Assembly: GCA_014803525.1 (NCBI GenBank)
Contig: JAAVBP010000004.1
Location: forward strand, 54,918-118,917
DNA: 64,000 nucleotides
Direction of reading: 5' to 3'
From: a bacterium
GTDB lineage: Bacteria > Pseudomonadota > Alphaproteobacteria > Rs-D84
Shown: in pieces, positions 3,119-63,201 of the stretch
How the letters are laid out: each line of letters starts with the position of its first letter
Position numbering within the stretch: the first letter of the stretch is position 1
Program-made: the position numbers and the translations under genes
Notes under the pieces: generated by a model
Told to the model about the DNA's origin: nothing
Database searches by the model: none
What the model saw: only the letters and a program-made list of their open reading frames with translations

Positions 3119-3209
3119 TTATGAAATCCCCCATACATTTTTATACACCCATTATATCATAAAAAAATTCCCATAACAAAGATTATCTGTGTCATGGGAA
3201 TATTTATCT

Positions 3210-8835: not shown

Positions 8836-9507
8836 TTAGACCGTTGGAACAAACATCCGAACACCGCCCGCCATATCCGGACGCAAAGACCGCACCAGTC
8901 GCATAGCCTGTTCCATCCGAATGGGCGAATTACCCAATACGAAATGCAAATCGCACGCGCCATCTGTATTTTTTAATGCCGCATACACACGCCCGACAAA
9001 ATCCGACTTGTTTCCTGCGTCGCGCGGCAGTACCAAGACCAATGCACGCGCCCGCAACGTACGCAGTGCCGCGTATACATTATCCCAATCGGCCGCCCCG
9101 ATTTCCGTGATATCAATCCCGATGGATAAATCACGATTAAAGAATAAATCATCGCGAACGCCCGATACCTCGGCTACAAAGGATGGCAAATCCGCCATAC
9201 GCAAGAAAACCTGGGCACCGTGTGCACCCTGTTTAAATGCAGCGTTTATTTGTGCCGCCATATCGGAAATAACCGCGATATTACCACCATGCGCCGGCAA
9301 ATAAAACCGCGCATTAATCCGCACAGGTGTTTTTTCCAACCACGCCCACAGCATTTCAATATCCGATGCCGCGGCCGATACCAGTGTCATACCATGTTCG
9401 ACAATATATTCCGCCGTTTTGGCCAAATCCCCCGTATCCGATGACGCGGCACACCACACAGCCACATTCCCAGACATTTCATCAAAAAAAACATCCATAT
9501 CCATCAT
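8836..9507 (-). CDS. hypothetical protein
   Basis: Long ORF with coding character. I moved the start to the internal Met (MMDMDVFFDE) to avoid overlap with the divergent gene at 9551. Confidence 0.45.
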   Translation of the reverse strand: MMDMDVFFDEMSGNVAVWCAASSDTGDLAKTAEYIVEHGMTLVSAAASDIEMLWAWLEKTPVRINARFYLPAHGGNIAVISDMAAQINAAFKQGAHGAQVFLRMADLPSFVAEVSGVRDDLFFNRDLSIGIDITEIGAADWDNVYAALRTLRARALVLVLPRDAGNKSDFVGRVYAALKNTDGACDLHFVLGNSPIRMEQAMRLVRSLRPDMAGGVRMFVPTV

Positions 9508-9550
9508 TGTACTTTTTACTTTACCATAAATATGATACAATAAAAGACAA

Positions 9551-10456
9551 ATGAGCAAACAAATCGAACGTATTTTTATTTGTCTGTTATGGCTGCTGGC
9601 GACCAGTCTTGGGGCATGCTTTTGGCTGAATACATTTTTTGGATTTAATATCTTTTCCACCCAGCATTGGCAATACCTGGCGTATCTGCAGGCATCCCAG
9701 ACACCTGTGCGCGGCGGTTTTTACATATCGATTATCATTTTGGCCTTGATTACTGTGATTGGGCTGTATGTATTGATGCGTCCGACGGACGCGCTAAGAC
9801 GCCTGCGCCGCGGACGGCGATCACAAAATGCGCCCGCACAAACCACAACAACACAAACAATGACACAGCCCGCACAACAAATCGAAACGGCCGTGCCACA
9901 ACCTGTGCCGGATATCCAACCCACCGCCACACCAAACGTTAACAGACCGCCCCGCCCTATAAACGCACTGCGCGGCGCACAAACACCGGGCACAACGACA
10001 AATGCCGCACCCGCACCATCTGTGATGCCGAACGCGGCACCAAATAATTTCGAAGAAATAAAAAGCATTTTCACCGACGCCGGATATTTGGTAAAACGCA
10101 GCCCGCAAATCGGAAACTTTAAACCGGCCCTGTTTGCAATTGGGACGAACGAACAATTGTGGATGGGCGGCATTGGCATCAGTCAAAAACCAATAATGGA
10201 TGCAGCCGAACGTATGGCAGGAATATTTTCTGACACACTGGATGACATAGAAATAAGTATAAATACTTTTGTCATTGCGCCAACCGAACCGATTGCGAAC
10301 CCGGATATACTGACATTTGATACGGTTAATCAGTTACGTGAATATATTGATGAAAATAAAAATATTCCGCCCACGGATACAGATGGCGGCCAGGAAAACT
10401 TTGACGCATATTCAGAATACATAGACACAGTCATAACATATATGGATAAAACATAA
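9551..10456 (+). CDS. membrane protein with Pro/Thr/Gln-rich linker, unknown function
   Basis: Two N-terminal transmembrane segments, a disordered P/T/Q-rich region, and a C-terminal globular part; first of four co-directional genes. Confidence 0.5.
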   Translation: MSKQIERIFICLLWLLATSLGACFWLNTFFGFNIFSTQHWQYLAYLQASQTPVRGGFYISIIILALITVIGLYVLMRPTDALRRLRRGRRSQNAPAQTTTTQTMTQPAQQIETAVPQPVPDIQPTATPNVNRPPRPINALRGAQTPGTTTNAAPAPSVMPNAAPNNFEEIKSIFTDAGYLVKRSPQIGNFKPALFAIGTNEQLWMGGIGISQKPIMDAAERMAGIFSDTLDDIEISINTFVIAPTEPIANPDILTFDTVNQLREYIDENKNIPPTDTDGGQENFDAYSEYIDTVITYMDKT

Positions 10457-11652: not shown

Positions 11653-13608
11653 TTAATCGTCAATCCGGCGACCAAAAATTACCACACCCAACACAGACAC
11701 CAATAAAACAATTATCGTCCACACATCGCGACCAATGCGACGATATGGCGTCATATGCGCGTCACCTGCGCGCCCGTCCAGCCACCCTGTCACACCAATT
11801 GGAATCTGTGAAATAATTTTACCGTCCGGTGCAACAAATGCACTGATACCAGAATAATTTGCACGAATAACCGGCAACCCTGATTCGATCGCATAGCGCC
11901 GCACCATATCCAAATGCTGGTACGTTCCAGGCGTACGCCCAAACCATGTATCATTGGTAATATTGATTATTGCGCTGGGCAATTCACCACGCGGGATCAA
12001 AGAATCAGAAAAAATAATTTCATAACAAATCGCCGGCACAAAAACAAATTCGCGACCATTTATATCGATACTTAATAACCGCGGCCCATCGCCCGACGTC
12101 AGGTCTGCTGGCGACGGCATTATTCCCATTGGACTGTATTCGCCAAACGGTACCAGATGCGATTTTGCATAAATATCGGAAACACGCCCCACAGGTGTGG
12201 CCAACACCATTGAATTATACATATGACCATCCATATACGCCGTTGCCCCCATCACAACAGGCACACCCAATATTTTTGAAAACGGCATATCATCGTCTGT
12301 TATAACAAACGGATACGACGTTTCTGGATAGACAATCAAATCAGGCCGCGCCGACATATCTCCATCGGCCCCCAACGCCAATAACATGCGAACATTACGT
12401 TCGGCACGCGCAATCACATCGGCATGGGAATACGACATCTTTTCATCCTGGGGCGCGGCCGGCTGCACAATACGAACAAGCGGAGAATCCGTATCCGGCA
12501 TTTGATTTGAAATATAAATATTATGACGCCCATACCATACACCACACACCAACATAAAAACGAATACAAGCCACGGAATCATGTACATAGCGCGTTTTTT
12601 CGCACGTAAAAATTCAACCGTCGCCGCGATAATTCCGACTATAATAAACGTCAGCCCAACCGCCCCAAACAATGCCATAGAATTTGCAACCATCGGCATC
12701 GGCATCATAATATTTGCCAAGGGATTCCATGGAAATCCGGTCAACACCCATTCACGCGCCCACAGCACCGCGACCCACGCGCCCGCAAAAACGAATGGTC
12801 TGGCCAAGGGCCGTGCGCGCGCTGCTGCAACAAACGGAAATGAAAAGATAATCGCACCCGCCAACGCCAGCCCCAGTATTCCCGGCACCGTCCATATGGC
12901 AAATTGTTGCGCCAGTTCAGGCACAACATATATTGAATGCAGTGCCCACCAAAACATAGCAACCGAATATGCTGCACCAAATGGTGCCACACATAAAAAC
13001 GTGCGCCATACAGATGTACGCGGTGCACCGGTTATCAACCAATATGCCCCCCCTATCCCCAGCAATGTTATCGGCCACATATAAAACGGTGCAAAACCCA
13101 AGGCCGCCGCCACACCACACGCAATCAACGCAACCGTGCGCCAAAATCCGCCACAACGCTGCGGCATCACACTATCAGATTCATATGGATTTTTTATCCC
13201 CAATTTTTCCAATATTTTTATTTCCTTGGCCTCCATTATTTCAGCCTCGTCATCCTGGATATGATCATATCCCTGCAGATGCAGCATTCCATGCACAACC
13301 ATATGCGCAGTGTGTTCGGCAATCGATATTCCGGCGTCACGCGCCTGGCGCGCAACGGTATCCAGCGATATATAAATATCACCTAATAACAGGTCATCAC
13401 CCAGTTCAAATGATAAAACATTTGTCGGTTTGTCTATCCCGCGATATTCTTTGTTTAATTGATGAATTTCCGTATCATCGGTCAGTATAATAGAAACCTC
13501 AACCCCGGCGCGGCGCGGCCCGGCGGCGGTTGCGATTTTCTTAAAATCTATCTTGTACTTTTTCCAGCGCGGATCGTTATAATTAACAAAAACTTGCATA
13601 TCCATCAC
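11653..13608 (-). CDS. lnt: in-frame fusion: endoribonuclease YbeY domain (about aa 1-145) + apolipoprotein N-acyltransferase Lnt (about aa 148-651)
   Basis: HGMLHLQGYDH zinc motif of YbeY; Lnt transmembrane region plus CN-hydrolase motifs (VYPETSYPF, PAICYEIIF); no stop codon between the two domains. Confidence 0.8.
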   Translation of the reverse strand: MMDMQVFVNYNDPRWKKYKIDFKKIATAAGPRRAGVEVSIILTDDTEIHQLNKEYRGIDKPTNVLSFELGDDLLLGDIYISLDTVARQARDAGISIAEHTAHMVVHGMLHLQGYDHIQDDEAEIMEAKEIKILEKLGIKNPYESDSVMPQRCGGFWRTVALIACGVAAALGFAPFYMWPITLLGIGGAYWLITGAPRTSVWRTFLCVAPFGAAYSVAMFWWALHSIYVVPELAQQFAIWTVPGILGLALAGAIIFSFPFVAAARARPLARPFVFAGAWVAVLWAREWVLTGFPWNPLANIMMPMPMVANSMALFGAVGLTFIIVGIIAATVEFLRAKKRAMYMIPWLVFVFMLVCGVWYGRHNIYISNQMPDTDSPLVRIVQPAAPQDEKMSYSHADVIARAERNVRMLLALGADGDMSARPDLIVYPETSYPFVITDDDMPFSKILGVPVVMGATAYMDGHMYNSMVLATPVGRVSDIYAKSHLVPFGEYSPMGIMPSPADLTSGDGPRLLSIDINGREFVFVPAICYEIIFSDSLIPRGELPSAIINITNDTWFGRTPGTYQHLDMVRRYAIESGLPVIRANYSGISAFVAPDGKIISQIPIGVTGWLDGRAGDAHMTPYRRIGRDVWTIIVLLVSVLGVVIFGRRIDD

Positions 13609-15123: not shown

Positions 15124-15191
15124 TAAAACTAATCCCTTGTTTATTTAATAAAATAATTATACCATAAAAAGGTAACAAAAACCTAACCAAA

Positions 15192-19025: not shown

Positions 19026-19093
19026 TGCTATGAATTATATCAGATTCGGATGCATCAAAAAAGTACCACACGTTAAATAAAGCACTTGATTTT

Positions 19094-20389
19094 TTATTTT
19101 TTTATCGCCTCGTACCACTTTTTCGCACTATTCCACATGATATTTATGTTGTTTTTCGCCGTCTGATAGAACTTGTCCGATATCTGAATATTAAATAACG
19201 TCTTGACCAGTGCTGGAATCATCGTCATAAACATTGAAATAAATATACCCATCATCAGGATTGTTATCACACTGTCGTTGCGCATCATCAGTCCATCCAT
19301 CAAAATTCGCGAATCGTTTTGCGCCAATGCCATTCCTAATCGCGATGCCCCACCCCATTTGCCGAACACCGCATTTAAAAACATTATCGCAAACGTCAGG
19401 AATACACCCGTCATTGCAATACCGACGGTGCCCTTTATAACATCGTCAATCATCTGTTTTATGGTGCGGCCACCCTGGGGAAAAATCTGCCATCCAGAAA
19501 ACAACCACCCCATCAGCATCAATGGCAACATAATTAAATCCATCGCCAACGTTATAAATATTTCCAGGAAATACACCGGGATCGGCAACAACGCCATAAT
19601 AAACAACACCAATATGGTCAGACCCGCAAAAAATATCGGCACATTTGGAAAAATCGGAATTCCCCACATTATCTTGTGCATATATTCCGAATCAAACGCC
19701 ATGTTCAACATCGCCCACCCTATCGTCATCCCCAGGCCGGTTATCTGGTGAACATTTCCAACCTCGCACGCCAGGTTATATCGCAGCATTGGCGAAAACG
19801 CCCCGGCATCCGCCGACGCCGATGTGGAAATCGCCGGATCTGCCATTGCGGTGGCAACAACGCATTCTGTAAAATTACCATCACCGCCGATATTTGCGGC
19901 AATATGATTCACAGACAGACCGACTGTAAATATCGGTTGGATAACAATTGAACTGATCATACGGGGCAACGGCATCACCAGAACCGCACACACCAATCCC
20001 AATTTTATCAAATGCACCCCGAAATCAGACGTAATCGACCACGGCTGATCTATTTTTGCATTTATGAATCCGGAAAAAATCTTCCATCCAAACCACACAC
20101 ATGACAAAATTACAACAAATGGAATTATCACAGTGCCCAGCGCACTGTACGCCTTGGGCAACAAATCAGACATAGTGGCCATAACACCACTGAACATGTC
20201 ACACGACCAACAGGTTGAAAAAAACGACAGCGCATCCGACATATCAAACGGTACCGCATTACGATATACTGAAAATCCAACTATTCCGACCGCACCCGCA
20301 ATTCCACCGACAATAAATGGCGCGACCGCCCCGGCAGACAACGGCAAGAACGACAAAAATACAATCCAAAATTTTTTTAATGCGCTCAT
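19094..20389 (-). CDS. polytopic membrane protein, paralog P0 of a 5-member family (VirB6/TrbL-like hypothesis)
   Basis: Start at the internal Met (MSALKKFWIVFLSFLPLSAGAVAP, signal-like); many transmembrane helices; CWSC motif shared with paralogs; hydrophilic C-terminus. Confidence 0.6.
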   Translation of the reverse strand: MSALKKFWIVFLSFLPLSAGAVAPFIVGGIAGAVGIVGFSVYRNAVPFDMSDALSFFSTCWSCDMFSGVMATMSDLLPKAYSALGTVIIPFVVILSCVWFGWKIFSGFINAKIDQPWSITSDFGVHLIKLGLVCAVLVMPLPRMISSIVIQPIFTVGLSVNHIAANIGGDGNFTECVVATAMADPAISTSASADAGAFSPMLRYNLACEVGNVHQITGLGMTIGWAMLNMAFDSEYMHKIMWGIPIFPNVPIFFAGLTILVLFIMALLPIPVYFLEIFITLAMDLIMLPLMLMGWLFSGWQIFPQGGRTIKQMIDDVIKGTVGIAMTGVFLTFAIMFLNAVFGKWGGASRLGMALAQNDSRILMDGLMMRNDSVITILMMGIFISMFMTMIPALVKTLFNIQISDKFYQTAKNNINIMWNSAKKWYEAIKK

Positions 20390-20399
20390 TGCTTTTAAG

Positions 20400-20429
20400 T
20401 ATATCACATTTTGTCCCAAATGTGATATA
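20400..20429. promoter_or_regulatory. perfect 12-6-12 inverted repeat (TATATCACATTT-tgtccc-AAATGTGATATA) in the divergent promoter region
   Basis: Seen directly in the sequence; lies between the start codons at 20389 (minus) and 20451 (plus). Confidence 0.65.
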
Positions 20430-20450
20430 ATTGAAAAAAATATATTATAA

Positions 20451-21743: not shown

Positions 21744-22919
21744 ATGAACAATGTGCTGAACCCTTTGATTGATGAAACGGTGCAATGTTGGGGTTGCCCG
21801 GTATTTGACCGCCTGTTTGGCGTGATATCCACCGCGGCGGCGGCCGTGTACGACCGGTTTGTGGTTATATGCGCCGTTTTGTTCTGTATATTGTTTGCAT
21901 TCTTTGCATTAAATGCGGTATGGAAAAACATTCGCGGCGGCGGCACTGATCCGTTTTATCAAAAATCACTGCGCCCGGTTATTATAAATTCAATTGTTGC
22001 ATTTTCATTGCTGGGACTTGGGGTGGCATTGCCCCGTTTTGTGTCGCAAATCACATTTGAACCGGTTGCCGATATAACAACAATTTATACACAAAGCATT
22101 TTGCAAACAGATGCGGACACCGTAAACGAACGCGTCACGTATCAACCCATGCCAATGCCGGATGATGGTTTCTATCGGCCCCAATTGCGTGATAAAATAA
22201 TACTGATTATGAAGACAACAATCACCCAGTTTCAATCATATATGAAACTGGGGCTGGCGGTGATAGATCGCGCATTCGAATGGGATGCCATGTTGGGGAT
22301 CGGGGCGTTTTTAAAACATATAATCATTCTGTTTTTAGGGATATATTTGTTTTATGGATTTTTCAAATTATTTATAAAGTTCTGTTTTTATTTTGCAGAT
22401 GTAATTATCGCAATGACATTTTTTGCATTCTTTTTCCCATTTTCTATAACCATGGTGGCATTCCGTGGCGCAGACGGACCAAAGTGGATGTCAGGGCTGG
22501 CCAAAAACGTTGGCACAGACCAATTTAAAAAAGTTGTTGGTGCCATAATCGGCCTGGCGGCAACAGTGTTAACATACACTGTGATGATGGTAATAATTGC
22601 AAAATATTTTTCCGCACCGGGCCAATCACCAACGGAATTAATGACACTTATCCAAGACGGCAATGTGTTTTCCGCCGACCTGAACGAAGACAACATTGCC
22701 CAGATTACGTTATTCAGTGCAATCGTTTTGGTTTATGTTCTGAACTTTATATATGAACAAATCCCCAAGGCAACACAAATGGTGCTTAGCGCGTTTGACG
22801 TCAGCACGGAAACCGCCCTTAGCGAGCAATTGGCCAATGACGCAATGCGGCTGACATCTGTGGCGGCCAGTTATATAAAAAACATTGGCGGCAAAATAAC
22901 AAACGGCGGTAATAAATGA
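21744..22919 (+). CDS. polytopic membrane protein, paralog P2
   Basis: Starts immediately after the P1 stop; CWGC motif; multiple transmembrane helices. Confidence 0.65.
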   Translation: MNNVLNPLIDETVQCWGCPVFDRLFGVISTAAAAVYDRFVVICAVLFCILFAFFALNAVWKNIRGGGTDPFYQKSLRPVIINSIVAFSLLGLGVALPRFVSQITFEPVADITTIYTQSILQTDADTVNERVTYQPMPMPDDGFYRPQLRDKIILIMKTTITQFQSYMKLGLAVIDRAFEWDAMLGIGAFLKHIIILFLGIYLFYGFFKLFIKFCFYFADVIIAMTFFAFFFPFSITMVAFRGADGPKWMSGLAKNVGTDQFKKVVGAIIGLAATVLTYTVMMVIIAKYFSAPGQSPTELMTLIQDGNVFSADLNEDNIAQITLFSAIVLVYVLNFIYEQIPKATQMVLSAFDVSTETALSEQLANDAMRLTSVAASYIKNIGGKITNGGNK

Positions 22920-24355
22920 AAGCGCAACTGATCATGATTGGCATACGACTGGTAATGGGTGCAATTGCGCTGGGGGTTGGTATATGGTATTTGTCATCAT
23001 CGATCGGCGGCGCGGCAATTACATATACCAGCATGGATAATTTCATGTCCGCCATCGGTGCATCCAATGATATTGCCGGCGCCAATGGATGCTTTATGTG
23101 CGGATATGTATCGGAACTGTTCGGTGTAATCGGACGTGCAACCGAAATGTTTTGGACAGCGATATTGGATTGGCTGTGGGTGCTGATGGCCCTGGGGTTT
23201 GGCGTATTTTTATTTATCAGTGCCATCCAGCATATATTCGCCGCCGCCAAAGACACCGCAAAAGTGGATGCCAACGAAAAAAAATTGGAATTCAAATCCT
23301 GGTTTGACAAGGTCTGGCGCCAAGGCGCGCGCATAATGATTGTTGGCGCGATGATTGGGGCACTGGGCATGGGCGGAACAACCGCACTGAGAAGTGTTGC
23401 AAGCGTAACAATTACACCCGTAATGTTTGTGGGCGCTGAATTATCCATGGCGGCGACCGGCACAGGATCCGCTGCACAATGTAATGCCATTCGCACATCA
23501 GCCAATGATGCAGGCGATATTCTAAACCCGATAATGGGCCCGTTTATGTGCGTCGTCGGAAATTTAAACAGTGTAATGTTGGCGGGCGCGGCCGGCGGAT
23601 TTGCATTGATGAACTATGCGTGGATGGGAATGGGCGGCGGAATATTTACGTGGGTCGCGGGATTGGCACTGGTTCTGATGTTTTTGGTGATTGGATTTAA
23701 TTTATTTTTCCAGGTTCTGTCGGTCGTATTTAAACTGGTGTTTTTGATAATATTCCTGCCGTTCTTTTTGGCGGCCGCCGCATTTGAAAAGACATGGAAG
23801 ATGGCATCGGGCCTGACCAGTAATGCGATAAACATGCTGGTAAAATCCGCAGTGCAAATTGTCGGTATCACATTAAAAGTATTAATTATTTACGCAACCG
23901 TGTCATATGCCGCCGATGAATTTTTCCCCGGCCCCGCCGATGGATACAGTGCGATTTTTCCACCAATCCTTAGTGCAACACCACAAAACCCAGACGCACA
24001 AACAATGTCCGTGATACAGGTATTTTCAGAATGCGAACGCGTGGCAACGATCGGCGGCGAAATGGATGCGGATGCATTCAAAAACTGTTTTGTCACCCGC
24101 AAAGCATCGGTTGAACAACAATACCCCGGCGCATTTGATTTCATGTCCGATGGGTGGGATTTCCTGATGTTGATGATTGGATTATTCCTGTTGTATTTCT
24201 ATGTTGTTGAACCGCGTGTGAACAAGATACTGGCCGCCCCCGGCAAGGATGAATTTGACTTTGGCACATGGACCAAAGATTTAGGCAAAAAGATATGGTC
24301 GGCACCCACACAAATATTTGGCGCCGTGTCCAAGGCAATGGGCAAAAAGGACTGA
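22916..24355 (+). CDS. polytopic membrane protein, paralog P3
   Basis: ATGA overlap with P2 (translational coupling); CFMC motif; multiple transmembrane helices. Confidence 0.65.
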   Translation: MKAQLIMIGIRLVMGAIALGVGIWYLSSSIGGAAITYTSMDNFMSAIGASNDIAGANGCFMCGYVSELFGVIGRATEMFWTAILDWLWVLMALGFGVFLFISAIQHIFAAAKDTAKVDANEKKLEFKSWFDKVWRQGARIMIVGAMIGALGMGGTTALRSVASVTITPVMFVGAELSMAATGTGSAAQCNAIRTSANDAGDILNPIMGPFMCVVGNLNSVMLAGAAGGFALMNYAWMGMGGGIFTWVAGLALVLMFLVIGFNLFFQVLSVVFKLVFLIIFLPFFLAAAAFEKTWKMASGLTSNAINMLVKSAVQIVGITLKVLIIYATVSYAADEFFPGPADGYSAIFPPILSATPQNPDAQTMSVIQVFSECERVATIGGEMDADAFKNCFVTRKASVEQQYPGAFDFMSDGWDFLMLMIGLFLLYFYVVEPRVNKILAAPGKDEFDFGTWTKDLGKKIWSAPTQIFGAVSKAMGKKD

Positions 24356-24359
24356 CGCG

Positions 24360-25670
24360 ATGAAATGGCCAAATAAATTTTTAAAGAAAATTATCACGTG
24401 CCTGGTCGTGGCAACATTGGTTTTTTCCGCGGCGCACGCGGCCGGAAACCTGCCCGGCGCCGCAGGTGGCGACATTGGCGATTATGGCGCATGGACAACA
24501 CCAAACAATCGCGAACAAATCACAGGCGCCATGTCACGCGACCTGGATGCATTTCAATCTGAATTTCAAACCCAGGTTATAGATAATTATGTCCCGATCG
24601 AGGCCAAAGTCGGCATCGCATTTATAAACGGCATGGCGTATATAGGCCGCGTTTTGGACGGTTCACTGGTGCGTTTTATGACAATATTCATATTGATAAT
24701 GTTCATATTCTGGGTCAGTTTTGAGGCATACCAGATTATAACCGGCACCACAGAAATTAAAAAGTCAATCGAAGGCATCGTCAAAAAAGGCGGCATGATT
24801 GCAATATGGTTAATCGTACTGCAATTTGGTGCCGCACAAATTTTCATGTGGGTGATGGGCCCGATTATAACCATCGGCACATATACATCGGATTTAATTT
24901 TGAATGCGGTAACATCAACCGCGGGCGCATCCCTGCCGGACACATGTGGCGCGATACGCGAATACGCCGCCACGCACGTATCAAACGCCGCCATTGTCGA
25001 TGCAAATGCGGCGGCAGATTTGATATGTTTGCCAACGCGACTGTCCGGATTTTTCTATACCGCCGTGGCGGTTGGATTTAAATGGATGTTGCTTGGGATC
25101 GGGTTCAGTGCCCTGACCTTTATGGCGGGTGCGATATTTGTAGTGGTGTTTTTAATTTTGATTTGGAAATTTGCATTGCTGGCACTTGGCGTGATTGCAG
25201 ATCTATTTTTAGCCGTATTCATGTTGCCGTTCACCGCGGTCGCGGAAACAATTGGTCAAACATCGTACAAGGGAATCGCCGGCAACATATTCAACGGATT
25301 TTTAAAAATATTTAATGCAGAATCATTATCAACACAAATCGGACGCTTTATTAACGCGGCATTGTTCTTTGTGTCTTATTCAATTGTGATCGCGGTATGC
25401 GCGGCATTGATGACCGGTATAATTGATGTTAAATTATCGGCCGTCACACCATTGATAAACACCGATCAATGGATTATCGTTATACTGATCGGGGCACTGG
25501 TATGGTATCTGGCGGACAAGGCATCGAAAATCGCAAAAGATCTGGGCGGCAATATCGACGACAACATCGGCCAGCAATTTGGCAAAGATATCGTAACCTG
25601 GGCCAAGGATATTCAGAAAACATATCAGAAATATCGCAAATTATACCAAGACAGCAAAAAATCATCTTAG
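24360..25670 (+). CDS. polytopic membrane protein, paralog P4
   Basis: Start MKWPNKFLKK... with signal peptide, 5 nt after the P3 stop. Confidence 0.65.
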   Translation: MKWPNKFLKKIITCLVVATLVFSAAHAAGNLPGAAGGDIGDYGAWTTPNNREQITGAMSRDLDAFQSEFQTQVIDNYVPIEAKVGIAFINGMAYIGRVLDGSLVRFMTIFILIMFIFWVSFEAYQIITGTTEIKKSIEGIVKKGGMIAIWLIVLQFGAAQIFMWVMGPIITIGTYTSDLILNAVTSTAGASLPDTCGAIREYAATHVSNAAIVDANAAADLICLPTRLSGFFYTAVAVGFKWMLLGIGFSALTFMAGAIFVVVFLILIWKFALLALGVIADLFLAVFMLPFTAVAETIGQTSYKGIAGNIFNGFLKIFNAESLSTQIGRFINAALFFVSYSIVIAVCAALMTGIIDVKLSAVTPLINTDQWIIVILIGALVWYLADKASKIAKDLGGNIDDNIGQQFGKDIVTWAKDIQKTYQKYRKLYQDSKKSS

Positions 25671-27748: not shown

Positions 27749-27801
27749 GATGTTATTATAATGCATCCGGCACAGCATATCAAAGGGGAAATAAAAAAAA
27801 C

Positions 27802-31033: not shown

Positions 31034-31118
31034 TCCTGATATTTATTATACCACAACGTAACAGCACAAAAAAGGCCAAAATAAACACCGCCCCGTTTTT
31101 ATTCGGGGCGGCGCATAA

Positions 31119-31919: not shown

Positions 31920-33188
31920 TTAGAACTGGAATATTGCCTGCAGACCAATGGTCGTTTCCTTGTAATCGGATAATTTGGCATCACCCTGCTTCATCCATCC
32001 GTTTACATAGGCCGCATCCTCTTCGGACCAATAACCATATGCCCAGTATCCCAATTTTTTATCATCCGCACTGTCATAGAACGCGGTCTTGGCATACAGG
32101 TTCAATGCAAACCAATCATTGGGCTGCCAACCGATGGCACCCTTGATCGACGCCTGGTTGTGCCAGTCATAATCGCCAAACACCGCCTCCAGATTCAATG
32201 TCCAATCTTCGTCCAGAACAGTGAACGCACCGATACCACCTTCGACATAGAACACATTGTCGACATCCGTATCATACGCGATAAAGATAGATGCCTCGTT
32301 TCCTTCTTCGGTCGTTCCGGTTATACCATTACCATATGAATTACCGTCAAAGTCAACATACCACCCGCGCAGTACGCCATATATTGTGCTGCGTGAAACT
32401 TTGTATCCCCCCTTTAGATCCAGGATATAACTGTTGGCAATATCTTTTTGATGTTGGAAATATCCGGACAATGTTCCAATCCATTTTGCATCGTCGATAA
32501 AGCGCCACTGGGCACCCAACCCCCACAGGTTCAGACCATTGTCATCCATTTTATCATCCGGCGCGGTCGACCAATCGAATTTGTATTTTGTTGAATCATA
32601 CTTTGCCATCGCAATAACTGCCAAACGATCTGTGATACCATAGCTGAAATCTTCTTTGATCGAAAACGCCTTGGCATCCCATTTGGCACGTGTATCGGAA
32701 ATCGTTATACCTTCGGCCGGGGTTAATGCAATGTCATACGAATTCATGTCATAAGATAAATCGGTGACCGAACCGAACTTGCCCTTTAACGGTTGAAAGA
32801 ACGGATGCGCCAAATAATATTTACGTTTCAGTTCGCTGCGTACGGTTTCGGCACGGGTTGTGCGAACATTGCGTGAAGTTGTGGTTGTCGTCGCCGAAGT
32901 ATACGCCGAAGTCCCCAGACGGGTATTGCTGTCGTACTGTTTGTACATGGCGCTGCGCGAACTTGGCTGTGAATAATACAAATCACCCGCATCACGTGAC
33001 TGATATGTCGTGGTTGTGCTGCGCGTCTGATACTTTTGATAATTGACATTATCGCGACTGCGCATGGCCGGCGCACCAGTTAAATCCGCACTGGATGCCG
33101 CGCGCGGACGAACATTTGTTGCGGCCCAAACCGGGCTTAACCCCAATACAGCCGCCGCCCATACAAATAAAGACATCTGCTTTTTCAT
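31920..33188 (-). CDS. outer-membrane beta-barrel protein / porin-like (OMP2)
   Basis: Start at the internal Met (MKKQMSLFVWAAAVLGLSPVWA); Tyr/Gln/Thr-rich N-terminal region; C-terminal ...LQAIFQF. Confidence 0.6.
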   Translation of the reverse strand: MKKQMSLFVWAAAVLGLSPVWAATNVRPRAASSADLTGAPAMRSRDNVNYQKYQTRSTTTTYQSRDAGDLYYSQPSSRSAMYKQYDSNTRLGTSAYTSATTTTTSRNVRTTRAETVRSELKRKYYLAHPFFQPLKGKFGSVTDLSYDMNSYDIALTPAEGITISDTRAKWDAKAFSIKEDFSYGITDRLAVIAMAKYDSTKYKFDWSTAPDDKMDDNGLNLWGLGAQWRFIDDAKWIGTLSGYFQHQKDIANSYILDLKGGYKVSRSTIYGVLRGWYVDFDGNSYGNGITGTTEEGNEASIFIAYDTDVDNVFYVEGGIGAFTVLDEDWTLNLEAVFGDYDWHNQASIKGAIGWQPNDWFALNLYAKTAFYDSADDKKLGYWAYGYWSEEDAAYVNGWMKQGDAKLSDYKETTIGLQAIFQF

Positions 33189-33262
33189 GATTTTATTTCT
33201 CCTTTTGGCTTGGATTATATCACAAAAAGGTAACCCAAAAAAGCATAAAGTAATTCGTACAT

Positions 33263-33850
33263 CTAAAACAGATATCCGATCGCGACCCCGGCGCGACTGT
33301 GACGCGCAGATATTTTTACCGGCACGTCCGATATACTGTAACGCAGGCGCGCACGCGACCATATCTCATATATTTTTATAAACGTATTGGCCGATATGTT
33401 TATCCGCATGCCAATGCCGCCACCATATATAAACCCGCGGTCATGAAAATGCGCGTCATCAAACTTTACGTCCGTAATGCCAATTTCCCCGATTGCATAC
33501 GGTGTGATGGCAAACGGTAAAATCGGCATTTCCAAGATGGACGTAATATTGCGCATACGCATTCCATCCACATCACGCCAAGACACATTTGCACCAACAG
33601 CAACACCATAAACATCAATTCCGGCAGTGATATTCGGCGCATCAAATTTGTATTTTTGTGTTTCGTTAAATTTATATCCCATTACATCTATTTTTGCGTG
33701 CGTTTTGGCACGAATATCAAATCCGGTGGATATGTAAAAGTAATTATCCTTATGCTCTGTTATACAATCTGAATATATTTCGATTATTTCATCCGCATAT
33801 GCCATGCCACTTATCAGCCCCAGCGTTAATGCGATTGCTGCCTTACGCAT
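33263..33850 (-). CDS. small outer-membrane beta-barrel protein (OMP3)
   Basis: Start MRKAAIALTLGLISGMAYA; C-terminal ...AIGYLF. Confidence 0.55.
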   Translation of the reverse strand: MRKAAIALTLGLISGMAYADEIIEIYSDCITEHKDNYFYISTGFDIRAKTHAKIDVMGYKFNETQKYKFDAPNITAGIDVYGVAVGANVSWRDVDGMRMRNITSILEMPILPFAITPYAIGEIGITDVKFDDAHFHDRGFIYGGGIGMRINISANTFIKIYEIWSRARLRYSISDVPVKISARHSRAGVAIGYLF

Positions 33851-34289: not shown

Positions 34290-34740
34290 ACAAAGGTAAT
34301 AGTATCCTAAAAAAATCCAAATTGCAAATATTAACTGGATTGCCCCGCCTGCGTTCCTTTTGTCACTCCCGCGGCGGCGGGAGTGGGTCTATTAAATTTT
34401 AATGGTTTTATCTGCACAATTTAACGCAATCGTTTTGTAATAACTTTATAGACCCTATTCCCGTTCTTTGAAAAACAATTATCAATTGTTTTTCAAATTC
34501 AGTGCGGGAATGACAAATTTGCCACCCCCCGATGGCTGGCGCCATCACCCCCCGCCCACGGCGGTGGGAATTAATACATTCCACACTCGGACGAATTGCC
34601 CCCGCCTGGGCGGGGGCTGGCAGTCGATAGACTGACTGGGGGTGGCCTGTTACGTACCCCGCGACACTTGCCACCCCCCGGTGCTACGCACCACCCCCCG
34701 CCCGCGGCGGTGGGCATTAGTATATTGCAAGCACAAATAA
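34290..34740. repeat. cluster of GC-rich palindromic repeat modules
   Basis: Same module set as 1735-2030 and 48076-48560, plus modules tttgtcactcccgcggcggcgggagtgggtctatt and tttatagaccctattcccgttctttgaaaaacaattatcaattgtttttcaaattcagtgcgggaatgacaa (the latter also at 54365-54440). Confidence 0.65.
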
Positions 34741-34799
34741 CTTTTTCACTATATCGCTGCCCCTGCCTGTACTAGGCTCAGATTAAAGTTCTCCTCCGG

Positions 34800-35095
34800 C
34801 GGAGGAGAACTTGGACCGTTCGCCGGACTCCTGAAAATTTATTAGAATGATACAGATGCACGAAAAATGGGTTGCAAAAAAACAAAGCTCGTTTACCGGG
34901 CTCTCGTAAAATAATTAGAATGATGTAGATATGTGAAATTCCGGCAACGTAGTGTACAAGACGTACATGAGTTACAAAAATAAAGCCCGTTCGCTAGACT
35001 CCTGAAAATTTATTAGAATGATACAGATGCACGAAAAATGGGTTGCGTAGTGTATTGGACATACATGAGCAACCCATTTTACGCGCAGATGCGTT
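34800..35095. repeat. tandem direct repeat, unit about 90 bp in three diverged copies with an about 180 bp period, ending in a 12-bp-stem hairpin
   Basis: gactcctgaaaatttattagaatgatacagatgcacgaaaaatgggttgc occurs at about 34817 and about 34997 with a diverged copy between; terminal hairpin aaaatgggttgc...gcaacccatttt. Confidence 0.6.
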
Positions 35096-37407: not shown

Positions 37408-38103
37408 TTATTTCTGACACAGCGACATACGTGCCAATCCCCACTTGGTAATATCCGCCATGACCATACCGATAAACGCCCCCAGCAATACATCCGTCGG
37501 CCAATGATCACCAACACACACGCGCGCCACACCGATCAAAATAGCCAGTCCCCATGCAGGAACCTTAAACCGGGGGGCCAACATCCCCATCATAACCAAC
37601 GCCGCAAACGATATCGCGGTATGTCCAGACGGCATTGAATTAAACACCCATTCAAACGATGGTGGAAAAAATCCGGTCAGCCCAACCATCTCAAACAATA
37701 TTGGACGCGCGCGGCCAAGTGCGATCTTTAACACCTCTATTACCACACCCGTGGCCAAGATAGAGCAAAATATAAAAAACACATTACTATTCTTTGTTTT
37801 TTGCCAAAAATCACAAAAAAACGACCGAAGGCTAAACCCGTTTCTACATTCTCGACATCGAAAGTCTGATTTTACTGTTTTTTTAATATAAAGCCCCAGT
37901 ATTGCCAACGCAAATGCACCGGCCCAGATCTTATCGTCAAAAATCACACTTAAAACACGCCAAAATCTGCAATCAAATTGTCGCATAAACATCAAAACAG
38001 GCACGTCAAACCACAACAGCCCCGCCCCAATAACGGCCGCCATCACAACCGCGCCCACCAATAATCGCAACCATCTCATTTTATTATCAGACGTTAAAAA
38101 CAT
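37408..38103 (-). CDS. PAP2-family membrane phosphatase
   Basis: PSGH and GDHWPTDV acid-phosphatase motifs. Confidence 0.75.
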   Translation of the reverse strand: MFLTSDNKMRWLRLLVGAVVMAAVIGAGLLWFDVPVLMFMRQFDCRFWRVLSVIFDDKIWAGAFALAILGLYIKKTVKSDFRCRECRNGFSLRSFFCDFWQKTKNSNVFFIFCSILATGVVIEVLKIALGRARPILFEMVGLTGFFPPSFEWVFNSMPSGHTAISFAALVMMGMLAPRFKVPAWGLAILIGVARVCVGDHWPTDVLLGAFIGMVMADITKWGLARMSLCQK

Positions 38104-50887: not shown

Positions 50888-50889
50888 AT

Positions 50890-50930
50890 AAAAGAAAAAC
50901 GCCCGGGAAATCCCGGGCGTTTTTCTTTTA
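50890..50930. terminator. bidirectional intrinsic terminator (cgcccgggaaatcccgggcg + T-run)
   Basis: Hairpin flanked by A and T runs. Confidence 0.65.
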
Positions 50931-51119
50931 TATCTGATACTGATCCTTTTGCATTGCGACCGCAAAATGCGACGGCGACTTAAACGAAAAAGTAAAGTCT
51001 TTTAGTAAACTGGTGGAATTTCTATATTTAATCCCTTTTAACGCGTTCAACAGTTTGGTTTCCGCATCTTTGCGTTGCCATTTAAACTCACTCTTTAAAT
51101 CACCCATTGAATTCAACAC
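50928..51119 (-). CDS. small hypothetical protein (63 aa)
   Basis: ORF overlapping the upstream gene by 7 nt (coupled pair). Confidence 0.3.
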   Translation of the reverse strand: MLNSMGDLKSEFKWQRKDAETKLLNALKGIKYRNSTSLLKDFTFSFKSPSHFAVAMQKDQYQI

Positions 51120-54229: not shown

Positions 54230-54450
54230 TTAATCCGGGTTTCTCCCTGTCACGTTCGCCCCCCGCAAGAATCCCCTTTTGTCACTCCTGCGCAGGCAGG
54301 AGTGGGTCTATAAAATATTTGTTCATACAGGACGTTTTGTGTTGCAACAGACTTATCATTTACTATGGTTTATAGACCCTATTCCCGTTCTTTGAAAAAC
54401 AATTATCAATTGTTTTTCAAATTCAGTGCGAGAATGACAACATACAAGCG
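54230..54450. repeat. palindromic repeat modules (cactcctgcgcaggcaggagtg; tttatagaccctattcccg...gaatgacaa)
   Basis: Same modules as 34350-34510 and 48210-48360. Confidence 0.6.
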
Positions 54451-57183: not shown

Positions 57184-58176
57184 TTATTCGGACAAAAATT
57201 TATAAATTATACGGCGATATTTACATGCACGCATACCGACGGGATTATCAAAGCATCCCGCATGCTGCATTTCATGCAAACGAGATTTTATAAATTTTAT
57301 ATCCGCATCAGACGTGCACCCACGCACCGCACGCATACATGTAAAAATAAACGGCCATAAAAATTCACGACGCCAACGTCGCAATTCACATGGTCGCCCC
57401 GCCCGACACGCAATATCATATGAACGAATTATCGCCCGACTGACATTATCAAACAGACGCATTGATTGTACACTGTTCAGCGCACTGGCCCCATTGGGGA
57501 TATAATAATACAACGGCAATCGCGTTACCGCCGCACGCGGATGCGCAAATATAATACGTGTCCACCATGGAAAATCTTCTGCGATACGAATATCGGTATC
57601 AAATCTCATATTTGCAATCAAATCCCTGCGATACAGATGCATCACCGGATAACAATGCCGAATTCGCCACCACCCCATCGAATGATTGCGTTCGGTCGTA
57701 TATTTGGCCAGACAATCTGTCCGCACGTACGTTACATGCGCCGGATTATAACACCGTATATGTGGATCAACATACGCCCCACGCCCCGAACACATCGCAT
57801 TCAAAATGCGGTTATACAAACGCGCATCATGACGAAAAGATACGATATCCACACCCGCATCACACGCGATACGATGCGTTATTTCCAGCGTCTGGGGATG
57901 AATAAAATCATCTGCGTCCAAGAACAACACATAATTCCCGCGCGCCATGGCCAACCCATCATTACGTGCGGCCGACACACCGGCATTTTCTTTCGTAATA
58001 ACACGCACGCGCGCATCACGTGACGCATATTCATCCAATATATCGCCAGAATTATCCGTACTGCCATCATTTATACAAATCAGTTCCCAATCATCATATG
58101 TCTGCGCACGCACACTGTTGATGCACCGACGCAAATATTTCTCGGCATTATAAACAGGAACAATTATCGAAATCAT
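57184..58176 (-). CDS. family 2 glycosyltransferase
   Basis: SIIVPVYNAEKYL, DGSTD and DADD GT2 motifs. Confidence 0.85.
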   Translation of the reverse strand: MISIIVPVYNAEKYLRRCINSVRAQTYDDWELICINDGSTDNSGDILDEYASRDARVRVITKENAGVSAARNDGLAMARGNYVLFLDADDFIHPQTLEITHRIACDAGVDIVSFRHDARLYNRILNAMCSGRGAYVDPHIRCYNPAHVTYVRTDCLAKYTTERNHSMGWWRIRHCYPVMHLYRRDLIANMRFDTDIRIAEDFPWWTRIIFAHPRAAVTRLPLYYYIPNGASALNSVQSMRLFDNVSRAIIRSYDIACRAGRPCELRRWRREFLWPFIFTCMRAVRGCTSDADIKFIKSRLHEMQHAGCFDNPVGMRACKYRRIIYKFLSE

Positions 58177-59201
58177 ACCGCGGTCCCGGATTTGATAAAA
58201 TCATAAATATCACGGCGCATACGCCGGGCGCGGCGCGTTGGCGGATTGCATAATACGCCCGCCTTTTTCAGGCGACAAAAACATTCGCGTGCCACCGCAA
58301 TATCCGCCGCATTGTCCAGATATCGCACCTTGCGCCAGGCCCATTTGATAAACGGCCACAAAAAATTGCGCGACCACATCGCCATCTGATAATCCGTTGC
58401 GCGCGCTGAATATAACGCATGCGCGTTTTCAATGCCGGCACACAAACTCTGCAGTATGCGCAACTGTTTCGCAGACAACACAATTCCGCCAAAATTCGGC
58501 ACATAGAAATATAACGGCAATGCGGTTATCGTAACGCGCGGACGTTGGAGCATAATTGCCGACCACCACGGAAAGTCTTCGAATAAAATCCCCTTGATAA
58601 ACGGTGTGTCGGCAATTAAATCGCGACGATATAAATTCTTCCATACCTGGCAATGTTTAATCAGCCATTTGCGCCGCGGATTAAATGCATTATGCGCATA
58701 TTCTGTTGCATAAATATACACATCATCGGTCACACGCGTTTTTATCTTATTCACATTGTATTTTTTATGCATACGTGCGGGCACCACAGAATCCGTATCC
58801 AACCCCAGTTTATGTCGCACCATTAATTGCGGACGATAAATTCTATCATATGTAAACGACACAATATCAGACCGATCACGCTTGGCCAATGCATATGTAA
58901 TTTCTAACGTTTGGGGGTGGATAAAATCATCACTGTCCAGATATAAAATATATTCGCCGGTGGCATGCGGCAAGCCGGCATTACGCGCATCCGACAATCC
59001 ACCGTTTTCTTTTGTAACAACAACAAAACGTTTGTCGCGCGCCGCATATTCGTCCAATATGGCCGCGCTGCCGTCGGGACTGCCATCATTTACACATATT
59101 GCCTGCCAATCGGCAAAAGTCTGATTTAAAACGCTGTCCAGACATCTGCGCAGATATTTTTCCACATTGTACACGGGAATGATTATTGATACCGCTGGCA
59201 T
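58173..59201 (-). CDS. family 2 glycosyltransferase (tandem paralog of 57184..58176)
   Basis: SIIIPVYNVEKYL, DGSPD and DSDD motifs; ATGA overlap with the downstream paralog. Confidence 0.85.
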   Translation of the reverse strand: MPAVSIIIPVYNVEKYLRRCLDSVLNQTFADWQAICVNDGSPDGSAAILDEYAARDKRFVVVTKENGGLSDARNAGLPHATGEYILYLDSDDFIHPQTLEITYALAKRDRSDIVSFTYDRIYRPQLMVRHKLGLDTDSVVPARMHKKYNVNKIKTRVTDDVYIYATEYAHNAFNPRRKWLIKHCQVWKNLYRRDLIADTPFIKGILFEDFPWWSAIMLQRPRVTITALPLYFYVPNFGGIVLSAKQLRILQSLCAGIENAHALYSARATDYQMAMWSRNFLWPFIKWAWRKVRYLDNAADIAVARECFCRLKKAGVLCNPPTRRARRMRRDIYDFIKSGTAV

Positions 59202-60148: not shown

Positions 60149-61219
60149 TTATTCTCCATCAACCCCGACGTCATCTTCGTCCGACGGGCCAGTTGTCATT
60201 TCTTCGGCAATACCGCCAGCGCGCGCCATGATTTTATCCAGCAGTTCCTTTTGTGCATCCGTATGATCACGCAGCCATGCACGCGCATTTGCCTCGCCCT
60301 GGCCCATACGTTCGTTATTGTATGAATAGAAACTGCCCGCTTTTTCAATCAGGTCATACTTTACGCCCATATCCAAGATTTCGCTGATGCGGCTTATACC
60401 TTCGCCATACATGATTTTAAAGTCAACGGTACGGAATGGTGGTGCAACCTTGTTTTTCACAACCTTGACCCGCGTTTCATTACCAACGACGTTTTCTTTA
60501 TCCTTGATCTGGCCGGTGCGGCGAATATCCAGACGCACAGACGCATAGAACTTTAACGCATTACCGCCGGATGTTGTTTCGGGATTACCAAACATAACAC
60601 CGATTTTCATGCGAATCTGGTTGATAAAGATCAAAAGAGTATTACTGCGCGCAACCGATCCCGCCAGCTTTTTCAACGATTGCGACATCAAACGCGCGGT
60701 TGTACCAACGAACGAGTCACCGATATTACCCTCCAGTTCCGCCTTGGGCACCAGGGCCGCAACACTGTCAATAACCACAACATCAACCGCACCGGATTTA
60801 ACCAGTGTATCAGTGATTTCCAATGCCTGTTCACCGGAATCGGGCTGGGATATAATCAATTCAGAAACATTTACCCCCAGCTTTTTTGCATAACTTGGAT
60901 CCAATGCATTTTCCGCATCGATATACGCGCATGTGCCGCCTTTCTTTTGCGCCTCGGCCACAGCATGCAGGGCCAACGTTGTTTTACCGGAACTTTCCGG
61001 GCCATAAATTTCAATAATACGACCACGCGGATAACCGCCAATGCCCAGTGCGATATCCAACCCCAGCGAGCCTGATGAAATCGCCTCTATATTCTGTTGG
61101 GATCCATCGCCCATTTTCATGATCGCTTCTTTACCAAACTGCTTCTGAATTTGTGCCAATGCAGATTCCAGCGCCGGATTTTTTCCAGATGTCGCCGCTA
61201 CTTCTTTCTTTGCCATCAT
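60149..61219 (-). CDS. recA: recombinase RecA
   Basis: GPESSGKTT Walker A motif; full-length RecA conservation. Confidence 0.95.
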
Positions 61220-61374: not shown

Positions 61375-61568
61375 CACAGTTGTTTCTGCGTGGCTGTGAA
61401 AAAGTGCAGAAATATAAAAACTAAGCAGCCCTTCAACGACTTACCGTGGTTGGAGGGCGCTGAATAGGGCCCACGGGTCTAATAAGGCGCGCTATACTGT
61501 GTGTAGATATGAACCTCCAACCATCTGAATTTTTTCCGATGGTTTTATTTTTTGCAAAGGGGGAAAAT
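61375..61568 (+). promoter_or_regulatory. structured leader element, variant copy L5
   Basis: GGTTGGAGG...CCTCCAACC helix at 61448-61520, then a T-run and AGGGGGA Shine-Dalgarno before the ATG at 61569. Confidence 0.45.
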
Positions 61569-61919
61569 ATGTCGGGAAAGCCATATCGCACAACGTTATT
61601 TGACATTAAACTGGGTGAATTAATTGCCATGCATCGCCGCATGCTGGGCATGTCACAGAAAGATTTAGCAGAAAAACTTGGTGTATCATTTCAGCAAATA
61701 CAAAAATACGAAACCGCCAAGAACAATCTATCTGCATCGCGCCTTTTTGAAATTGCAACCGTATTTGAAATGTCGGTTGGTCAACTGGTCGACGGCACAG
61801 AACAAAAATATATACTGGATTCAACAGGCACGGCAATACTGAAAATCATGTATAAAAAAATGAACTTTCAACAGCGGCTTGCACTGCTGCAAGTTGCACG
61901 CACAATGATTTCTGTTTAG
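61569..61919 (+). CDS. XRE-family HTH transcriptional regulator with a C-terminal extension
   Basis: LGMSQKDLAEKLGVSFQQIQKYETAKN HTH. Confidence 0.75.
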   Translation: MSGKPYRTTLFDIKLGELIAMHRRMLGMSQKDLAEKLGVSFQQIQKYETAKNNLSASRLFEIATVFEMSVGQLVDGTEQKYILDSTGTAILKIMYKKMNFQQRLALLQVARTMISV

Positions 61920-61921
61920 AT

Positions 61922-63109
61922 TTACTTCTTTTTTGTCAGCAAGATTCCAACCGATATCGCCCCGATCGCGGCACTGACACCCCAAACGGCCGCTGTTACG
62001 CCATAGATTGCAATGCATGCCGCACCCAAAATCGGTGCAACAACATTGGGCAAATTTACGCTGGTGCGAAATACGCCATAGAAACGTGTCTGCTCTGACT
62101 TTTTCGTGTTATCAAAGAACATCAAATCATGCACCGATTCCATTAATGCGCCCGATACCTGCCACAGGACAAATATCGCCAACAACGGAAATCCCGTCAT
62201 AATTGTTGCCGCGGCCGAAAATATTGCAAACGACCCAAACCCCAGCCCCAGCCAAATGGACTTGCCATATTTACGCACGGCACGACCCATAAATTCACTA
62301 AGTATCAAATAAGGCACAATCCCCAACGTCAATACCCAACCCAGCGTATCCTTGGAAAAACCGTTTTCGATAACAACAATCGGAACATACAAATAACGCA
62401 TTGCGCGCAATGAATAGTATCCGAAATTTATCGCATATGCACGCGTCATGCCGGGTGTTCTGAAAAACAACCGCGTATTTCGCCACAGCGCGCGCATCGT
62501 ACGCCGCGGATTTACCGGGCGGGCCCGTTTATCTTCTTGGACAATGCCAAAAAACCGAAAGAACAGCACCGCCGCCATATATATCGCCGCCGATGCAAAG
62601 AACGCCGCGCGATTATCAAAACGCGACGCAATTGCCACCGCAATCATCGGCGCAAACAGTGCACCAACATTCAACCACAAATGATACCGCGCATTTAATC
62701 GCGCCATACCGACGTCACGCGAAAAATCAGACATAAACAGCGGTATTAACATACTGCTTAGCGTGATCGCAAAACCGGTTGTGAAATCCAGTGCGATAAA
62801 CGTCCCCGGCCGGATAGAAAATCCCATCATCGCATAACACACAGCCAACATTAATAACGAAAAATAAAATAATTTTGCCTTGGAAAACTGGCGCAACAAT
62901 TCATTTGCGAATAATCCCACAAACATACAGAATGCCGCATATGCCGCAACATACACACCGACAATGGCCGACGAACGAAAAATTTCCAGTATAACCAGGG
63001 AATATACCGCATTATAAATACCATCGGCAAAACCGGTGAATAAACCAAAGTTCGCAAACGAAAACCCACTGACGAATTTGCGCATTGAAATATATCTGTC
63101 TTTGGCCAT
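61922..63109 (-). CDS. MFS transporter
   Basis: 12 predicted transmembrane segments, MFS-like 6+6 organisation. Confidence 0.7.
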   Translation of the reverse strand: MAKDRYISMRKFVSGFSFANFGLFTGFADGIYNAVYSLVILEIFRSSAIVGVYVAAYAAFCMFVGLFANELLRQFSKAKLFYFSLLMLAVCYAMMGFSIRPGTFIALDFTTGFAITLSSMLIPLFMSDFSRDVGMARLNARYHLWLNVGALFAPMIAVAIASRFDNRAAFFASAAIYMAAVLFFRFFGIVQEDKRARPVNPRRTMRALWRNTRLFFRTPGMTRAYAINFGYYSLRAMRYLYVPIVVIENGFSKDTLGWVLTLGIVPYLILSEFMGRAVRKYGKSIWLGLGFGSFAIFSAAATIMTGFPLLAIFVLWQVSGALMESVHDLMFFDNTKKSEQTRFYGVFRTSVNLPNVVAPILGAACIAIYGVTAAVWGVSAAIGAISVGILLTKKK

Positions 63110-63201
63110 GTAAAAAATCCCCCCACTGTTACGGGACGATTGTATCATAAAAATGCCCCCCGCGCAAACCTGTTCGCGTTGGATGAAGCCTGGGGGAATT
63201 T

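Follow-up and report, generated by a model that had tools for sequence, protein, structure and literature searches.

The perfect inverted repeat at positions 20400 to 20429 of the window (the whole stretch of 64,000 nucleotides that was analysed) most probably consists of two near-consensus extended −10 sigma-70 promoters that lie opposed to each other and drive the diverging operons of membrane proteins on either side, a reading to which we assign a probability of about 0.75. Each arm of the repeat reads as a complete box of the TRTGnTATAAT type, correctly placed for its gene, and on this reading the symmetry results from two boxes on opposite strands that converge on one consensus, each after an A/T tract. 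This genome shows it in perfect form, most relatives only approximately.

The repeat has a 12-6-12 geometry, TATATCACATTT-tgtccc-AAATGTGATATA, with 12/12 complementary arm positions, and direct reading of the DNA confirmed it as the sequence-only reading had described it. It occupies an intergenic region of 61 bp (20390–20450), bounded by the start of a − strand gene at 20389 (CAT at 20387–20389) and that of a + strand gene at 20451, in the context CAT tgcttttaag TATATCACATTT tgtccc AAATGTGATATA attgaaaaaaatatattataa ATG. Both start codons and the 61-bp divergent gap were likewise found as reported, and the element does sit in the divergent control region of both operons; its placement between the divergent starts therefore stands, but the exact centring claimed for it does not, as the left start codon is 10 nt away and the right one 21 nt. 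Around the perfect core, imperfect symmetry reaches arms of 24 nt (20388–20411 and 20418–20441, 83%), and the symmetric block covers about 45 bp (20393–20437), with T[A/G]AAAA after each hexamer. The parts of the core, as read from the sequence, are the following.

20400–20411, no strand: left arm, TATATCACATTT
20412–20417, no strand: spacer tgtccc between the arms; within the core, only 20414–20417 vary freely
20418–20429, no strand: right arm, AAATGTGATATA

The palindrome is real and beyond chance. In 200 first-order Markov simulations of the window (arms of at least 12, loop of at most 12), the mean was 0.11 perfect inverted repeats per 64 kb and 9% of the simulations had any, while the full palindrome pattern with up to 3 mismatches occurs once in the 64-kb window against 0.00 expected. 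That it is a chance palindrome or an artefact of assembly is thus next to impossible, the more so as the region is kept in 80 independently assembled genomes. The palindrome is also under strong selection.

The genes on both sides encode polytopic membrane proteins, which were assigned through profile matches and BLAST.

19094–20389, − strand: membrane paralog M1, 431 aa
20451–21743, 21744–22919, 22916–24355 and ~24357–25670, + strand: four tandem membrane paralogs (P1 to P4)

Pairwise BLAST identity among the paralogs is just 20–27%. Profiles built from ~80 orthologs of each paralog are linked over nearly their full length (M1–P2 96.8%, P1–P4 93.3%, M1–P4 90.4%, P3–P4 85%, M1–P3 80%), and since they connect all five proteins in one chain, at 80–97% probability, the earlier designation of a membrane-paralog array is justified and borne out. 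The − ORF listed for M1 extends to 20821; the conserved N-terminus and the promoter geometry point to 20389 as its real start. The gene order of the array is kept in 79–80 loci, flanked by inositol monophosphatase, a 169-aa protein and uvrD.

The membrane proteins gave no Pfam or NCBIfam match, TrbL/VirB6 included, even at E ≤ 10, a PDB sequence-profile search with them gave none, and neither did an exact-sequence lookup of the + gene product. The AlphaFold model of the first + paralog is of modest quality at best, with a mean pLDDT of 61, and a Foldseek search with it returned TrwI/VirB6 chains of the R388 type IV secretion system as 8 of the top 9 matches, the best at E 4.7e-3 with a target-normalised TM-score of 0.56. 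As a lead and not a finding, the flanking genes may tentatively be called VirB6-like. A Pfam scan of ~50 of the ~55 window ORFs, which left out 58173–59201, 60149–61219 and 61922–63148, detected no other type IV secretion genes. Tandem arrays of VirB6 paralogs are a feature of the vir-homolog type IV secretion system of Rickettsiales. The present array is like these in that a reduced-genome alphaproteobacterium carries several tandem, highly diverged polytopic membrane paralogs, and unlike them in that the proteins measure 390–480 aa and have no TrbL/VirB6 family match.

The surroundings of the array are those of an ordinary chromosome, with genes for ThrRS, a GltX-like tRNA synthetase, YbeY/Lnt, MgsA, UvrD, FtsK, SecDF and YajC, as well as MutL, GreA, DksA, a XerC/D-like recombinase, BipA and glycosyltransferases. 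The YbeY/Lnt gene is a 651-aa ORF at 11653–13608 on the − strand, in which the N-terminal part matches YbeY (rRNA maturation RNase) and the C-terminal part Lnt (apolipoprotein N-acyltransferase), an apparent gene fusion or a mis-joined ORF. A search of the window for RNA families and tRNAs gave no match. A protein of a gut metagenome-assembled genome shares 100% identity with the + gene product, whose relatives were found in genomes that carry the labels Alphaproteobacteria, "Rickettsiales bacterium" or Candidatus Enterousia. These labels correspond to the order Rs-D84, whose members have genomes of <1 Mb and a proposed partner-dependent lifestyle (PMC12306168).

The promoter elements that can be read in the 61-bp gap are listed here with their strands.

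20421–20431, + strand: extended −10 box TGTGATATAAT for the + operon (TRTG at 20421–20424, n at 20425, hexamer TATAAT at 20426–20431)
20408–20398, − strand: extended −10 box TGTGATATACT for the − gene (TG at 20406–20405, hexamer TATACT at 20403–20398)
20409–20420, no strand: inner flanks ATTT(T) and AAA(T), the A/T tract directly upstream of each TRTG, from the alignment
20387–20391, − strand: predicted, unmapped transcription start of the − gene and its start codon (ATG at 20389–20387, 8 nt past the hexamer)
20432–20450, + strand: discriminator and short leader of the + operon, with a predicted start at ~20438

Each box overlaps its arm and runs 2 nt past the arm end, and TGTG-A-hexamer is present in both arms. 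A promoter scan picked out the same hexamers, as ATCACA-17-TATAAT with TG on the + strand (20403–20431) and as ATCACA-17-TATACT with TG on the − strand (20426–20398). A role of the opposite arm's ATCACA as a −35 element (4/6 match, 17 bp) is not relied on here: these bases are TG/TR positions of the other box, they vary to ACCATA, and the other promoters of the genome have no −35. The + box ends 19 nt before the ATG at 20451, which would leave a leader of ~13 nt that has no Shine-Dalgarno sequence; the TGA at 20432–20434 is invariant among the related loci. The − box ends 8 nt before the ATG at 20389, for which reason the − mRNA is probably leaderless or has a leader of ≤2 nt. The two hexamers lie 22 bp apart and the predicted starts ~47 bp apart.

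In the proposed mechanism, the holoenzyme would read each arm via the −10 hexamer and the TG, so that a −35 element would be unneeded. The right arm would drive the four-gene + operon from ~20438, and the left arm the − gene from ~20389–20391, with leaderless or near-leaderless mRNA. The footprint of RNA polymerase extends from about −55 to +20, and because each box occupies the upstream (−35) zone of the other, two polymerases would probably exclude each other. The near-identical boxes may share or compete for polymerase, and this would result in a roughly balanced output of paralogs that presumably cooperate.

The same box recurs in the window. TRTGNTATAAT is found in 5 copies against 0.57 expected, a number reached by 0/100 shuffles, and the other four exact copies are single, non-palindromic boxes. 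Three of them are intergenic and lie upstream of genes in the right orientation (3151–3161, 15156–15166 and 31045–31055); the fourth, at 33214–33224, is inside the longest ORF 31920–33362 and is followed by an AAGGAG Shine-Dalgarno sequence. In all, 14 candidate promoters of the window have the form (A/T tract)-TRTG-n-TAnnnT, and a conserved −35 is absent from all 14. TGnTAnnnT is located 7–11 nt before the ATG of seven window genes (9551, 9507, 19025, 20389, 27766, 31033 and 37358), among them ftsK, uvrD and the 169-aa neighbour gene, which suggests leaderless mRNAs. The TRTGn box thus appears to be the general promoter form in this genome. Two of the other promoters of the window are useful for comparison.

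9518–9541, both strands: second back-to-back extended −10 pair, TATGGTAAAGT on − and TATGATACAAT on +, between divergent genes starting at 9507 and 9551
19034–19042, − strand: lone extended −10 promoter TGATATAAT that forms no palindrome; the ATG of the 169-aa gene follows after 8 nt

The second pair occupies a 43-bp divergent gap (9505–9553) with boxes at 9518–9528 (−) and 9531–9541 (+), which together form an imperfect palindrome; the starts lie 9–10 nt from the hexamers, so both genes appear leaderless. The single promoter and its flanks are conserved in 76 aligned sequences. The stretch from the M1 stop codon to the 169-aa gene, 19026–19093, is near-invariant in these 76 sequences (TAAAAAAATAAAAAATCAAGTGCTTTATTT...CCCCCTTTTTTG...CCGAATCTGATATAATTCATAGCAATG) and appears to hold a terminator-like T-run and then a leaderless promoter.

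Some gene starts in the window look different in the light of the boxes. They suggest that ftsK starts at 37358 and not at the longest-ORF position 37532, that uvrD starts at 27766 and not at 27778, that gene 8836–9660 starts at 9507, and that gene 31920–33362 starts at about 33190, downstream of the box at 33214–33224.

How the palindrome varies was followed in 80 orthologous loci with the same gene order from species-representative genomes (order Rs-D84, Candidatus Enterousia relatives); counts at arm positions come from the 66 sequences with canonical spacing. Upstream of the + gene, TGnTATAAT is found in 81/81 sequences (the window and the 80 loci), and the − box, as TRTGnTA[T/A]A[C/A/G]T, in 80/80 sequences examined (the window and 79 loci, with the truncated L050 left out). 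Among the 66 sequences, 20394–20412 and 20418–20434 are nearly invariant and 20423–20434 fully so (66/66), as are T−12, A−11 and T−7 of both hexamers (66/66); the TG of the boxes is invariant and R is G or A only. At 20414–20417 of the spacer, the top base accounts for just 50–68%. Variable arm positions are limited to 20399, which is hexamer position 5 on the − strand, 20404, the n of TGn, and 20407 and 20422, the R of TRTG. In this alignment, the arms thus differ at precisely the positions at which the promoter consensus is permissive.

The arms match at 12/12 positions in 17 of the 66 sequences, at 11/12 in 32 and at 10/12 in 17, and no compensatory change in the other arm was detected among them. 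The left arm drifts, varying at three positions that are fixed in the right arm, which stays consensus; at 20404/20425, 20/66 species carry a C.A mismatch. In 67 sequences the hexamers are 22 bp apart; the distance is 21 bp in 1, 23 in 4 and 25–26 in 7, with one outlier (L015) that could not be placed. From the − hexamer to the ATG, in contrast, it is 7–8 nt in 58 of the 73 sequences with a placeable − start, and on the + side, too, the distance from box to start codon is conserved among the loci. In the main clade, the inner flanks ATTTT (20408–20412) and AAAT (20418–20421) and the 22-bp spacing are almost invariant. In a distant clade (e.g., L021, L039 and L063), the flanks are replaced by AAAA / TTTT and the inner arm halves read TATATCATAAAA...TTTTATGRTATA(AT), which amounts to a pair of the usual T-tract-TATG-n-TATAAT promoters (TTTTTATGRTATAAT) set 4 bp further apart; both genes appear leaderless there. 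Two opposed consensus promoters are therefore sufficient to give an inverted repeat at this locus.

The palindrome had at first been taken for the operator of a dimeric repressor or activator, and in this form the claim is not supported, given that the arms coincide with promoter boxes, the box recurs singly, the variation is uncompensated, the spacing shifts and no further copy is found in the window or in ~1 Mb of related loci. A dimeric or tetrameric factor encoded elsewhere could still bind two AAATGTGATATA half-sites and co-regulate both operons, and might coexist with the promoters; such a factor would probably be a repressor, because the site covers both −10 boxes. The perfection of the symmetry in this genome, its extension to ~45 bp, the invariance of the AAAT/ATTT flanks and the 22-bp box spacing in 66–67 related species, and the presence of at least one XRE-type HTH protein in the window speak for it. 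This HTH protein, the sole one found in the window, is encoded by the ORF 61509–61919, 41 kb from the palindrome. The absence of an adjacent regulator gene, which had been noted before, was confirmed: the neighbours are the 169-aa protein, which has no family match, and the inositol monophosphatase.

Against such a factor, it is the positions free in the promoter consensus that vary and they are never compensated, so that a perfect palindrome is kept in only 17/66, and in some lineages the spacing departs by +1, −1 or +3 to +4 bp (up to 4–5 bp between lineages). No second half-site or palindrome was found in the 64-kb window, or in ~1 Mb of related loci outside the orthologous position. The proposed half-site search did not define a regulon: ATATCACATTT with ≤2 mismatches has 32 matches in the window against 42 expected, and just the two arms are exact. 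A search of the ~1 Mb of loci for the inner palindrome and for everted TCAYA/TRTGA pairs returned only the orthologous site and chance matches. Nor is deep conservation specific to the palindrome, because the non-palindromic promoter at 19034–19042 is equally conserved, flanks included, and this control also implies that strong conservation alone is no sign of an operator. On balance, a regulator of this kind is unlikely: the DNA searched offers neither a second site nor a linked regulator gene as positive support for it.

A factor of the CRP type has to be considered separately. Operators of the CRP/FNR family have the form TGTGA-N6-TCACA, with the consensus half-site AAATGTGA. Each arm does contain AAATGTGA / TCACATTT, in which respect it resembles these operators. 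In contrast to them, the half-sites here are everted and point outward (TCACA-N12-TGTGA), their centres are 17 bp apart and not 11, and most left arms have A in place of the G of TGTGA. Half-sites that face outward do not suit a CRP-type dimer, and a CRP-like site was ruled out by orientation and spacing; no CRP-family gene was seen in the window. To our knowledge, the arms have no likeness to the consensus sequences of dif/Xer (11-6-11 geometry), DnaA, CtrA, LexA or Fur. A dif/Xer-type site was rejected because the element is fixed at a syntenic promoter position in 80 species and not at the terminus, and the local change of GC skew at ~20 kb simply follows gene orientation.

It is very improbable that the element acts through its structure, either as an RNA hairpin (terminator or attenuator) or as a cruciform extruded under the negative supercoiling of divergent transcription. 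Folding of a single DNA strand of the region gives −10.1 kcal/mol, with z = −5.8 relative to shuffled sequences, and its AT-rich arms are situated between divergent genes. Transcription of the element is not expected, however, as both predicted starts are downstream of it, its two neighbouring genes face away and no gene reads in; a GC-rich stem and a T-run are both absent, its arm substitutions are not compensatory, and a terminator scan of 20390–20450 gave no match. The fallback of a bidirectional terminator-like hairpin, which had been offered alongside the operator, is rejected on these grounds. Intrinsic terminators of the window such as 50888–50931 and 1161–1192 look quite different. Together with 2030–2057, these two are long perfect palindromes (arms ≤21 nt) whose GC-rich cores lie between an A-run and a T-run, and resemble typical bidirectional intrinsic terminators between convergent or adjacent genes.

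The reading as two opposed promoters can be placed among known systems. Back-to-back divergent promoters with overlapping upstream regions are a classical gene organisation, a name that goes back to Beck & Warren 1988. The locus is like these in having promoters on opposite strands of one 61-bp gap, each in the upstream zone of the other, and unlike them in that the palindrome region is unusually compact and symmetric; no regulator site between or over the two promoters is demonstrable at the locus. The arrangement is a compact case of classical back-to-back divergent promoters.

Sigma-70 promoters with an extended −10 (TGn) or TRTGn "−16 region" are best known from Bacillus and other Gram-positives, and genome-reduced bacteria use them as well (PMC2613000; PMC4245973, citing Voskuil & Chambliss 2002). 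As in Gram-positive TRTGn promoters, both arms match TRTGnTATAAT, there is no conserved −35, conservation follows the degeneracy of the consensus and the box recurs in the same genome. Differences are the host, here an uncultured genome-reduced alphaproteobacterium, and the fact that the boxes form a near-perfect inverted repeat, one of them 8 nt from a start codon.

Another type of divergent transcription is that of the bidirectional promoters studied by Warman, Grainger and colleagues, which arise from the symmetry of the −10 element (PMC12825309, PMC10268837); in these, the −10 elements overlap and a distance of 18 (or 10 or 23) bp typically separates the divergent starts (PMC12825309). In both cases a pseudo-symmetric sequence would engage polymerase both ways, and one binding would exclude the other. 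The assignment to this type was rejected, since the −10 elements at the locus do not overlap: the hexamers are separated by 22 bp and the predicted starts by ~47 bp, as given above.

One feature goes against a reading in which the promoters are all there is. In the main clade, the inner flanks and the 22-bp spacing are more constrained than a minimal extended −10 box requires; directly upstream of TRTG, most other promoters of the window have TTTT and not AAA, and AAAA flanks are found at some single promoters in relatives. An overlapping protein site over the promoters is possible, as the half-site AAATGTGA equals the consensus half-site of the CRP family. We regard it as quite unlikely that the ~45-bp block 20393–20437 is a switch, in which a dimeric regulator or the mutual exclusion of polymerases sets the ratio or timing of the five VirB6-like paralogs.

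The window contains a second perfect palindrome, TTTGAAAAACAATT-atc-AATTGTTTTTCAAA, in two identical copies 20 kb apart (34467–34497 and 54391–54421), and this is a better candidate for a repeated protein-binding site than the palindrome at 20400–20429. The copies sit in longer repeats (~34355–34517 and ~54275–54437), a two-module direct repeat in which one module is CCTTTTGTCACTCC..GGAGTGGGTCTAT and the other TTTATAGACCCTATTCCCGTTCTTTGAAAAACAATTATCAATTGTTTTTCAAATTCAGTGCGrGAATGACAA. Housekeeping genes lie between the copies, so the repeats are not an obvious mobile island; they gave no Rfam match and may represent a small RNA gene or a recurring regulatory element. A further stretch, 34500–34800, is non-coding and GC-rich; it contains repeated CCACCCCCCG...GGCGGTGGG units and, at 34786–34812, a perfect 13-nt palindrome, AAGTTCTCCTCCG-g-CGGAGGAGAACTT.

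For the locus at 20400–20429, the preferred reading of two back-to-back promoters removes a candidate regulon, and because the palindrome need not imply a hidden regulator, a hunt for a "cognate HTH protein" would probably be unrewarding. The promoter picture can improve start-codon calling, as for ftsK, uvrD and the gene at 8836–9507. The conserved cluster of five VirB6-like paralogs, which is probably highly expressed, merits study of its own; if the switch were true, the paralogs under its control would make up an apparatus for secretion or contact with a central part in the partner-dependent lifestyle of the genome-reduced gut order Rs-D84. More generally, the promoters of Rs-D84 appear to be of the Gram-positive style, TRTGnTATAAT with no −35 and often directly before the start codon, which would imply leaderless mRNAs.
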